Part shown: positions 38,456-42,084 of the stretch, one piece after another
Layout of the letters: each line of letters begins with the position of its first letter
Numbering within the stretch: the stretch's first letter is position 1
From: Tricharina praecox
Lineage: Eukaryota
Length of the DNA: 64,000 bases
Reading direction: 5' to 3'
Assembly (NCBI RefSeq): GCF_024521635.1
Contig: NW_026250427.1
Location: forward strand, 496,001 to 560,000
Program-made: the position numbers and the translations under genes
The notes under the pieces: model-generated
Database searches by the model: none
The model's input: the letters and a program-made list of their open reading frames with translations, nothing else
Told to the model about the DNA's origin: nothing

Positions 38456-40272
38456 ATGGCGACCATGGTACGACCCATCCTCCTCCTCCATCTCCTCCTC
38501 CTCCTCTACCTCGATCCATCGTTCGATCGCGATCCACTCGTCCCCCCACCCAGCGCTGTGTTTTATTACTATGCGATCCGATCTGGCAGCAAGATGTTGG
38601 ATGGCATGCTAAGTTTTCGTGTAGGATTTGAGGGTCGGTAACAAGTACAGAATCGGCAGGAAGATTGGCAGTGGCAGTTTCGGCGACATCTACCTTGGTG
38701 AGCGAGCATAAGGGTCCCGTATTCGGTGGGCCATCAACTAACGGAGGACGTACAGGCACAAATATCATCTCCGGCGAGGAGATCGCTATCAAGCTCGAGT
38801 CTGTCAAGGCGAAGCACCCGCAACTGGAATATGAAGCCAGGGTGTACAAGTCGCTCGCCGGTGGTGTCGGTATCCCGTTCGTCCGTTGGTTCGGAACCGA
38901 ATGCGACTACAACGCCATGGTCCTCGACTTGCTCGGACCCAGTTTGGAGGATCTGTTCAACTTTTGCAACAGAAAGTTCTCCTTGAAGACCGTGCTGCTG
39001 TTGGCCGATCAGCTGGTATGTACCGAGAGCAGGTGGCTGTGGGAAGCGCGGCGAAGAGATGGGACTCCTATGGAGTCGGAGCATTACCTGCCCTTCCTAC
39101 CATACGCCGCTACAACCCTCTCCATCCCACACAGATAGCTCACTGACGGAATGCTCAGATCTCGCGTATCGAGTACATCCACGCCAAGTCCTTCATCCAC
39201 CGTGACATCAAGCCCGACAACTTCCTCATGGGCATCGGAAAGCGCGGCAACCAGGTCAATGTTATCGATTTCGGCCTGGCCAAGAAGTACCGCGACCCGA
39301 AGACCCACTTCCACATTCCGTACAGAGAGAACAAGAACTTGACCGGAACTGCGCGTTATGCTTCCATCAACACCCATCTGGGAGTCGGTACGTCTGATAA
39401 GGTTGCCCTTGCCTTCGTCCAAACCTAATGCTGTGTGTAGAGCAATCCCGTCGTGACGACATGGAGTCTCTTGGATACGTGATGCTCTACTTCTGCCGCG
39501 GCTCTCTCCCCTGGCAGGGACTGAAGGCTGCTACCAAGAAGCAGAAGTACGATAGAATCATGGAGAAGAAGATGACGACCCCTACCGAGGTTCTCTGCCG
39601 TGGATTTCCCAACGAGTTTGCGATCTACCTCAACTACACCCGTTCTCTCCGCTTCGACGACAAGCCCGACTACTCTTACCTCCGCAAGATCTTCAGGGAT
39701 CTCTTTGTCCGTGAGGGCTTCCAGTACGACTACGTCTTTGACTGGACCGTCTACAAATACGTAAGTTGACCCAGAGGCTCCCCTTTATTTATTTTTGCAG
39801 CCAAGTGTTGACGTCCCCTGACCTTTTAGCAGCAGAAGAACGCCCAAGCCATCGCGCAGGCCGCTGGCCAGCAAGGCGGTGCTGGCGGTGCTGGCGAGGA
39901 CGAAGATAAGGAGCACAAGCAGCAGCAGCGTAGGGCCCCTATCGGCCCTAGCGGACACCCTCCCCAGCAGGCCAACAAGCCCGGCGTCGTCGGTGGCACC
40001 AGGAGAAAAGTTGGTGAGCGCGGTGGAATGGGTGCCGATGCTACTCAGGGCATGAGCGGATCCGACCGGATGTAAGTCAAGCTTATTTCCGAGGTTTCTG
40101 GGGGAGACTCAGTCTGACCTGGTGCGTTTTTAGGCTTCGTTCCGCCTCGAAGGGTGCTCAGGCCGGTCAGGCTGGTTTCGGTGGCATGGCCAGCGGTGCT
40201 AATGGTGGCGGATATCGCAGTGGCCAGAAACGCGACGACCCACCCGCTACCGGCGGCCAACAGTGGTACTGA
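38456..40272 (+). CDS. HRR25: Casein kinase I, Hrr25/Hhp1/CK-1a type
   Basis: [89 protein letters not shown]; six canonical introns. Confidence 0.97.
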
Positions 40273-42084
40273 CTGAGCGATTCCGCGGTCGATTCTGCCA
40301 AAGGCTGGTGGAATACTTTTTCGAAGCTGTAAATGGATCCGGCGAGCATCTGAGTAGTCATCACCAAGGGCAGTTTCCTAAATTGCTATTTCCTATCCGG
40401 GAGGGAGTTTGTTGTCAAGAAGAGGAGCGCTACTACCATTGGTTTTTCCTATGTCATCCCTTATTGCGTTGTGTGCGTTGATGCCGTTGGCTTTTGCGGT
40501 TCCCCGTCGTGTGGAGGTTTCCTTTGACTGTTTTGCTTTGTTTTCTTCTGCGTTTTGTTTTCATTCTATCCTAATGGGTCCGACCGGGAGCGAATTGGAT
40601 GTCTGGCACGGGACTGCTGGCTTTCCGACAACTTTCGACGACCACACGGACGGACAACCTCTTTTTTTTCGATTTACGGCGGTTACGGTCACCCTGTCTG
40701 CAACCTTCGATAATTCTTTGCACGGTAACCTCACCTTCCGCTTACGAAAAAAAAAAAAAAACATGTCTTCGATTGGGATGGAACAAAATATGCTTTTTCT
40801 GGATCTCTCAACGACCGAGAGAGGATATACGCCCTTCTCTTACTTTCTTAGAGTTGCGTTGCGCTTTACTGGACGGGGTACTCCCGGACGGCTCTTTCGG
40901 GGGATATGATGGGGAACTGCACCAGGGACGGCTTGTTTTTTCTGTGCTTTGCGTTTTGCTTTCCGGTTCTTACGGCACACACAATAAGGGATCCGACATG
41001 GGTTTCTTTTCATTTTCTTCTTTCACTTCTTGCTTTTCTCTTTGACCATTGGTAGATGGTACTCTGTCTGATTCTCTACTTCCTGTCAACTCCTTACTGG
41101 TTTCATTACCCTTGTGAACTTTACTATGTAGCAGCGCTCTTCGGGGTTCCCGAAGAGTTGTCTTTCCAGATGGCTTGCGGCTTTCATTGATTTTCATTTG
41201 TACTCTCTCTTTTTTTGCTTGCCTCTTTTATCCTATTAAACTCTACTCTGCTCTTTTGTTTTACTTGTGTGTTTTTTGCTTGCTTTCATCGGTTCGATGA
41301 ACGATTCCGCGTGCGTCGTGAGTCCTTTCGTTTAGGTATTGTTGTTTCCTGTGTTGATGGTTTTTTCGTTGTCGTTCGTCGTTCGTCGTTCGTTTTGTCC
41401 AAGTGTTTCCATGCTGTGCTGTGCTGTCCTTGCCGTTTGATGGGATCGCTATGGATGGATGGATGGATGGGGATGATGGGGGTGCGGAGGGTGCGGAGGG
41501 TGCGGAGGGTAGATGTGAATGGTTGGCGAGTGGAGAGTGAGTGGAGAGTGAAGTGGAGAGTGAGTGAGAGTGAGTGAGAGAGGGTGTGCAGGTGAGGGGA
41601 GGGGATGAGCTCAAGGCGTGTGGGGTGTGGGGCTTTCTACGCGGAAAAAAACGATTGGATTGAGCGGTATTGATGCTCTTATCTATACTGTTCTGGTCTG
41701 CTTAGTAGTTTCTAGTAGGAGGGCTTGCGTTACTCTAGTTAGTAGTTGCCTTGAGGGATATGATAAACTTGTTGAGAAACTTGGGAAGCTTTTATGATGT
41801 GAGACTCGTGCATGGAGAATGGTTCGCTGTGAGAGCTATTAAATAATTGTGTAGGCCGCTGACACGTGCGTGGTGAGGTGAGGTGATGTGTGGTTTACCC
41901 GGCGCTAGGTTAGCGGTAGCGGTAGCTCGGTGCACTTGGGGCACAGCTGGCGGGTAGGTGGGGAGCTGCTAGTTAGTGGGGACGATCACGACGTCAACGA
42001 TATCCGCATAGGCACACGCTCACGTTCAGTTCCAGTTCCAGTTCCAGCTCCACACACGAACTCGGAGCAGCATCAGCTATAGCT

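Follow-up and report, generated by a model that had tools for sequence, protein, structure and literature searches.

Hidden peroxisomal signals and CK1 in described systems

The C-terminal peroxisomal targeting signal of type 1 (PTS1) is a tripeptide of the consensus [SAC][KRH][LM]. Freitag et al. reportedly described, in 2012, peroxisomal isoforms of fungal metabolic enzymes that derive from stop codon readthrough, and Schueren (in 2014) and Hofhuis (in 2016) are said to have found readthrough extensions with a PTS1 in human LDHB and MDH1. Casein kinase 1 (CK1) has a different tie to peroxisomes: yeast Hrr25 phosphorylates receptors in pexophagy from the cytosolic side, a role for which no targeting signal is required. 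Here we describe a gene of the same kinase family in a stretch of 64,000 nt of DNA from Tricharina praecox, a member of the Pyronemataceae within the Pezizomycetes (positions 496,001 to 560,000 of contig NW_026250427.1, forward strand; 'the window'). Its UGA stop codon is followed in frame by a short extension that ends in SKL, which would make it, in contrast to the cytosolic and signal-free role of Hrr25, a candidate for a kinase carrying its own PTS1. We put the probability that low-level readthrough yields an extended CK1 that is bound by Pex5 and imported into peroxisomes at about one half.

Hidden PTS1 signals behind leaky stops have so far been described in metabolic enzymes such as PGK, TPI, GAPDH, Rpe1, LDHB and MDH1. 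A UGA with CU behind it is enough for efficient readthrough in U. maydis, where the two bases next to the stop have the greatest influence (PMC4207609), and the third base varies among the proven cases, being CTA in Tpi1, CTC in Pgk1 and CTT in Rpe1 (PMC4207609). Stiebler et al. (2014) recognised real cases by the conservation of both stop context and PTS1 (PMC4207609). The T. praecox locus resembles U. maydis Tpi1, Pgk1, Rpe1 and Art1 in its UGA-CU stop, its short in-frame extension and its terminal PTS1, with context and signal conserved in relatives. It likewise recalls human LDHB and MDH1, where low-level programmed readthrough at UGA CU(A), measured at 1.8% and 4% respectively (PMC9513677), exposes a hidden PTS1. 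It differs from the U. maydis class in that the cargo is a Ser/Thr protein kinase rather than a metabolic enzyme and that the feature is restricted to Pezizales; and whereas the human genes have UGA CUA G and proven import, T. praecox CK1 has UGA CUG A and is a candidate by its sequence.

Two further groups of kinases bear on the case. The orthologous N. crassa ck-1a shares with the T. praecox gene an intron shortly before the stop and a very long 3′ untranslated region (3′UTR); its several C-terminal isoforms tune the autoinhibitory tail (Kelliher et al., 2020; PMC7746235). These isoforms differ from the one considered here in being made by splicing, and none is reported to carry a PTS1 in the part of that paper available. 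PTS1-type ends are known from Arabidopsis kinases (Kataya, 2022), from human NDR2 and from spinocerebellar ataxia type 11 (SCA11) variants of TTBK2, a kinase of the CK1 superfamily (PMC9549241; PMC10822820). In contrast to the T. praecox signal, those signals lie in the regular frame or result from a disease frameshift, not behind a stop, and none of these kinases is of the CK1-delta/Hrr25 type. No casein kinase appears in the available part of Tables S1/S2 of Stiebler et al. (PMC4207609), and we found no publication that combines casein kinase, PTS1 and readthrough, nor such an isoform in the related literature, as judged by titles and abstracts.

The CK1 gene and its transcript

The window gene is a kinase of the CK1 delta/epsilon-Hrr25 type, with the following features.

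38456..40272, forward strand: CK1-delta/epsilon gene (Hrr25, N. crassa ck-1a type), coding sequence of 7 exons, 424 amino acids
40134..40269, forward strand: last coding exon with the tail LRSASKG...QQWY, the C-terminal end conserved in Pezizomycetes

The exons lie at 38456-38467, 38625-38697, 38756-39015, 39159-39387, 39441-39760, 39830-40071 and 40134-40272, and all six introns have GT..YAG ends. The spliced translation of 424 residues ends in QQWY and is the same as a database protein of T. praecox (P0001), with 100% identity in exon 6. The kinase domain was recognised by Pfam (Pkinase PF00069, E 3e-26), and the best solved relatives in PDB were CK1 delta (E ~1e-166) and Hrr25 (E ~1e-153) over residues 4-301, with values of 1e-152 to 1e-167 overall.

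RNA contigs of two runs, X1 and X2 (Logan contigs of runs that behave as transcriptomes, from which rare splice forms can drop out), contain the joints 39760>39830 and 40071>40134, matching the gene model. From 40134 they run unbroken across the stop and the extension, up to 40660 in X1 and 40459 in X2, which places the extension right after the stop within the mature mRNA. The annotated stop marks the real main terminus, since a QQWY or PQWY end was found in 10/10 full-length or tail-complete Pezizomycete proteins fetched (including Wilcoxina, Trichophaea, Pyronema, Tuber and Morchella). An end of the xWY type is also present in most fungal loci.

Retention of the last intron (40072-40133) would bring in a TAA at 40073-40075 that ends the frame right after ...SDRM and removes the whole LRSASKG...QQWY tail. 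Such a form could be a short tail-less isoform like the Neurospora CKI-short, and the protein P0012 ends at the same point. A soil metatranscriptome (X3) also contained pieces identical to the window, among them one of 172 nt (40255-40426) that covers the stop together with the extension. A single contig of 175 nt from X8, a run assigned to another organism ('Organism C'), matched 40407-40581 without difference at depth 3.3. Carry-over or presence of the same species in soil may account for these pieces, which provide no independent evolutionary evidence.

A PTS1 tripeptide in frame behind the CK1 stop codon

The coding sequence ends CAG TGG TAC TGA, with the TGA at 40270-40272 followed by CTG. 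Around this stop we distinguish four elements.

40270..40275, forward strand: stop codon and context TGA CTG, with the UGA CU core readthrough motif (PMC4207609), invariant in the relatives L003, L006/L007 and L040/L041
40273..40329, forward strand: in-frame extension of 19 codons, LSDSAVDSAKGWWNTFSKL, of the same length and indel-free in relatives
40321..40329, forward strand: SKL (TCG AAG CTG), canonical PTS1 tripeptide; SKL in L003 (with synonymous TTG) and L006, AKL in L040/L041
40330..40332, forward strand: second stop TAA, conserved in 4/4 taxa, with indels beginning immediately 3′ of it

The first-pass annotation of the window had pointed to an in-frame SKL before a stop behind the CK1 TGA, and this proved exact to the codon. 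It had also called UGA-CUG a near variant of the leaky context, a label that we drop: because the third base varies in the proven cases, TGA CTG lies inside the published core motif of UGA CU with variable third base (PMC4207609). Besides the tripeptide, the extension contains two invariant Trp residues, and WWNTF at 40306-40320 makes up a W-x-x-x-F pattern next to the PTS1 in 3/4 taxa (WWEKI in L040); W-x-x-x-F is the type of Pex5 pattern described to be bound by Pex14 and Pex13. The last nine residues contain no acidic residue in the window and one Glu, at -6, in L040. The SKL of the window fits the PTS1 consensus, as do the SKL, SKL and AKL of the relatives.

How often such an arrangement arises by chance was estimated from the 3313 stop-to-stop intervals with 3 codons or more that the six frames of the whole window contain. 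SKL ends a single interval (1/3313), namely the CK1 extension; any tripeptide of the form [SAC][KRH][LM] ends 13 (0.39%), and TGA-CT starts 62 (1.9%). The joint chance of TGA-CT and a PTS1 is ~1e-4 per gene, i.e. about one chance case per fungal genome. The SKL in a single genome is thus not significant alone, and it is conservation in relatives that lifts the case above chance.

Conservation in related fungi

To find relatives, a metagenome collection was scanned with an alignment of CK1 tails, which gave 517 matching stretches and 372 relatives, of which the best 80 were examined. The CK1 C-terminus could be located in 60 of the 80 loci, corresponding to 34 distinct flanks. All three distinct Pyronemataceae-like loci have TGA CTG, exactly 19 codons and TAA:

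L003: extension peptide LNDSAVDSAKGWWNTFSKL, ends SKL
L006, same as L007: extension peptide LSDSAVDSAKDWWNTFSKL, ends SKL
L040, closely matched by L041: extension peptide LRDSAVDSAKQWWEKIAKL, ends AKL

Synonymous divergence (pS) from the window in exon 5 is 0.31 for L003, 0.35 for L006 and 0.73 for L040, with replacement divergence (pN) ≤ 0.008, and the three loci therefore represent separate species; L040 shares its CK1 tail, residue for residue, with the protein P0004. With the window, stop context and PTS1 are conserved together in 4/4 Pyronemataceae-type sequences. Across the survey, TGA CT occurs in 3/34 distinct CK1 flanks, exactly those three that have a long PTS1 extension.

Tuber-like loci carry a shorter version. 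L001 reads TGA GCG AAA CTC TGA, a 3-codon extension AKL, and L004 and L005 read TGA GTG AAA CT[C/T] TGA, a 3-codon extension VKL in each, the Leu change being synonymous. L004 and the Tuber aestivum protein P0008 have the same CK1 tail. VKL is non-canonical; it is among the experimentally validated plant PTS1 tripeptides (PMC3427985, Table A1).

Among the 27 other distinct fungal flanks (the 34 minus L001, L002, L003, L004, L005, L006 and L040), 26 have no PTS1 end, and many use TAA; L021 belongs to these 27. The non-Pezizales flanks with TAA stops lack a PTS1 extension except for L065 (3043-3069; TAA, then ...SCNTAARL*), the only PTS1-like end outside Pezizales. We take it as chance, since its closest relatives (L064, L069-71, L076) have no PTS1 end, their frames continuing or terminating at another place, and its stop is TAA. 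The comparison of 3′ flanks that had been proposed with the initial observation thus came out positive in the Pyronemataceae-like loci, with TGA CTG, an open frame of 19 codons, mostly synonymous change and SKL/SKL/AKL. It gave a weak pass in the Tuber-like loci, which have AKL/VKL three codons after TGA but G instead of C after the stop. It failed in other Pezizomycotina, where 26/27 flanks are without PTS1 and many have TAA, and also in the Pezizales-like L002. The absence of the PTS1 from those other flanks means that the feature is lineage-restricted.

In another fungal group the CK1 stop is likewise followed by an open frame: in L073 (3522-3596) and L078 (3171-3245; also L079) the stop, in the context TGA TTT ATT, leads into 24 in-frame codons ending ...DSRQFRLA. 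L077, L054 and L027 share pieces of it at other lengths, and it is probably conserved UTR.

Coding-type substitution pattern of the extension

In the two closest comparisons the extension evolves like coding sequence. Its pS/pN is 0.316/0.023 between the window and L003 and 0.316/0.023 between the window and L006, so that replacement sites change ~14-fold more slowly than synonymous ones; in these comparisons pS equals that of the kinase exon, and pN roughly matches or exceeds pS when the other two forward frames are read. A parsimony count over the three closest sequences gave 8 change events, 6 of them synonymous, including the Leu CTG>TTG change within the PTS1. Given a random probability of a synonymous change of 0.23-0.25, six or more out of 8 have a probability of 0.003-0.005. 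An antisense gene as the cause of this periodicity was rejected: synonymous codon changes are rarer in the wobble-sharing antisense frame than in the sense frame, and stops close the antisense frame in L006, where it also lacks a start.

The extension is also the best-conserved stretch of the CK1 3′ region, and it is indel-free while both flanks carry indels. It differs from L003, L006 and L040 at 5, 5 and 12 of 57 positions respectively, with 0 gap runs in 57 columns. For the last coding exon the corresponding values are 23/136, 28/127 and 33/118 with 8 gap runs, and in each of the three UTR bins that follow (60 bases of the window, 61-67 columns) there are 7-8 gap runs. In L040, the first ten extension codons differ from the window at third positions only, and 9/21 bases before the tripeptide are changed (GWWNTF>QWWEKI); the S>A exchange keeps the consensus, and AAG CTG TAA is intact.

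Proposed readthrough to a peroxisomal isoform

From these data we infer readthrough, recognition of the tripeptide by Pex5 and a role of the kinase inside the organelle. In T. praecox and related Pyronemataceae, the main CK1 form ends QQWY-UGA, and its stop has the UGA CU context known from fungi as leaky. A small fraction of ribosomes would decode the UGA by a near-cognate tRNA and add 19 residues (QQWY-x-LSDSAVDSAKGWWNTFSKL). The C-terminal tripeptide would be the signal bound by Pex5, leading to import of the folded minor kinase isoform into peroxisomes or peroxisome-derived Woronin bodies.

A wider proposal, which we put forward tentatively and hold less probable than the import of an extended CK1 as such, is that Pezizales, by programmed UGA-CU readthrough of the essential CK1-delta/Hrr25 gene, produce a kinase dedicated to the peroxisome interior or the Woronin body. 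Its composite tail would consist of the invariant DSAVDSAK-WW, a possible W-x-x-x-F contact for the Pex14/Pex13 docking complex and [S/A]KL, of which Tuberaceae would keep a minimal three-residue version.

Several observations weigh against readthrough to a peroxisomal isoform. The data set is small, with 19 codons in 4 taxa, and the survey covered the best 80 of 372 metagenome matches, in 60 of which the CK1 end was located. Between the window and L040, pS of the extension (0.24) is not above pN (0.20). Random substitution would leave frame, stop and PTS1 all intact in 43% of trials with 5 changes and in 13% with 12; since the whole CK1 3′UTR is unusually conserved, the SKL kept by the two closest relatives carries little weight. 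The Tuber-like loci have no CU after the stop (TGA GCG, TGA GTG), and the tripeptide is the non-canonical VKL in 2/3 of them. A small hairpin there spans the first stop, the 3 codons and the second stop (L001:696-721, L004:1271-1296, L005:1212-1237; dG -7 to -12 kcal/mol; z -0.7, -2.6 and -0.7 respectively) and could be an alternative cause of the conservation. The Pezizales-like L002 has TGA GCG and ALTAD*, shortly followed by a poly(A) tail, and L021 has a TAA stop and RVIL*, both without a PTS1. As a regular protein C-terminus the extension was found neither by a word-index search, which gave P0001 alone (69% coverage) among 72 candidates, nor by exhaustive phmmer, which gave 2 matches, each located in the Gly-rich part of the query; neither search has much sensitivity for a target of 19 residues.

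Alternative explanations

Three alternatives were weighed against readthrough to a peroxisomal isoform. The one that survives best, although we consider it unlikely, is an untranslated conserved regulatory element of the 3′UTR (e.g. a site of an RNA-binding protein for ck1 mRNA stability), with the open frame and SKL as by-products. The surrounding transcript offers a setting for it:

40333..41300, forward strand: long 3′UTR with conserved blocks 40352-40373, 40415-40427 and 40800-40878, from RNA contigs and alignment

X1 pieces reach 40844 and X2 pieces at least 41300, which gives a CK1 3′UTR of ~1 kb or more. Past the second stop, L003, L006 and L040 have several further conserved blocks in common with it, of which the last includes a hairpin-like CTCTC...GAGAG. 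The orthologous ck-1a of N. crassa has a regulated 3′UTR (see below), the chance of PTS1 survival is 13-43% per relative, and the Tuber-like hairpin spans both stops. In addition, RNAalifold pairs the stop region 40264-40275 with the conserved block UAGUCAUCAC at 40355-40366, ~90 nt downstream, in 10 pairs around a 2x2 loop. This helix shows no compensatory change, however, and the minimum free energy is no better than that of shuffles (z 0.41); it finds no support as a readthrough-stimulating structure and gives an RNA element no covariation to draw on either. Nor would such an element lead one to expect synonymous third-position change as fast as in coding sequence with pN 0.02, a strict absence of indels that ends exactly at the TAA, or the L040 patch, which at 43% divergence keeps length, frame and an S>A version of the PTS1.

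A second possibility, which we think improbable, accepts that the extension is translated by readthrough and selected, but for a binding module, docking at the peroxisome surface or modulation of nonsense-mediated decay (NMD) rather than for matrix import. The xDSAVDSAK and the following WW are indeed conserved beyond what a spacer requires and better than the kinase's own tail; WWNTF fits the W-x-x-x-F bound by Pex14/Pex13 in Pex5, and ck-1a is NMD-regulated in Neurospora (PMC7746235). Yet the 19-codon and the 3-codon Tuber-like forms share the terminal xKL only, W-x-x-x-F is lost in L040 (WWEKI), and a 60-nt extension clears little of a 3′UTR of at least 1 kb.

Least of all do we expect the splicing route raised in the first-pass annotation, in which a GAG acceptor at 40276-77 replaces 40132-33 and skips the QQWY exon to give ...SDR-I-DSAVDSAKGWWNTFSKL: although the reading frame would be kept (AT + C, followed by GAT), the AG occurs in 3/4 taxa, CTGAC lies just upstream, a third ck-1a isoform of N. 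crassa uses an alternative acceptor (PMC7746235) and fungal GAPDH gains a PTS1 through alternative splicing (PMC9549241), the RNA contigs of two runs have only the two canonical joints (a weak point, as contigs drop rare variants), L003 has AA for AG without another in-frame acceptor, the gene's six genuine acceptors are without exception YAG, not GAG, the branch-point-like A is only ~4 nt from the AG, and the corresponding acceptor in Tuber-like loci would miss the xKL frame. Either route, readthrough or splicing, would still yield a CK1 isoform with a C-terminal PTS1.

A protein kinase as candidate cargo

Judged by its sequence, T. praecox CK1 fits the known readthrough-PTS1 class, and what is new is a protein kinase as cargo. 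If readthrough to a peroxisomal isoform is true, the mechanism would extend from metabolite shuttles to regulation by a pleiotropic signalling kinase; should the wider proposal of a dedicated intraperoxisomal kinase hold, CK1 would be the first signalling kinase known to reach the peroxisomal matrix via a hidden post-stop signal. Kinases that act on the peroxisomal lumen, and the control of peroxisomes by phosphorylation, are described as largely unknown (PMC9549241; PMC10822820), and a PTS1-bearing CK1 isoform would be a concrete candidate for a peroxisomal kinase. It would also be genetically testable, as a point change in the stop or a deletion of three residues would spare the essential cytosolic kinase. 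The locus further adds, in non-model fungi, a candidate readthrough extension backed by a coding-type substitution pattern.

The long 3′UTR of ck1

In N. crassa, ck-1a mRNA has a 3′UTR of 1739 nt, is a target of NMD and is bound and stabilised by PRD-2 (PMC7746235). The long T. praecox ck1 3′UTR with its conserved blocks parallels this regulated 3′UTR. Taken with what is known from Neurospora, the T. praecox extension points to the 3′ end of ck1 as a hotspot of isoform and mRNA-level regulation. Within the 3′UTR lies a run of 15 A residues (40747-40761), around which the X1 contigs break up; internal priming or alternative polyadenylation could occur there.

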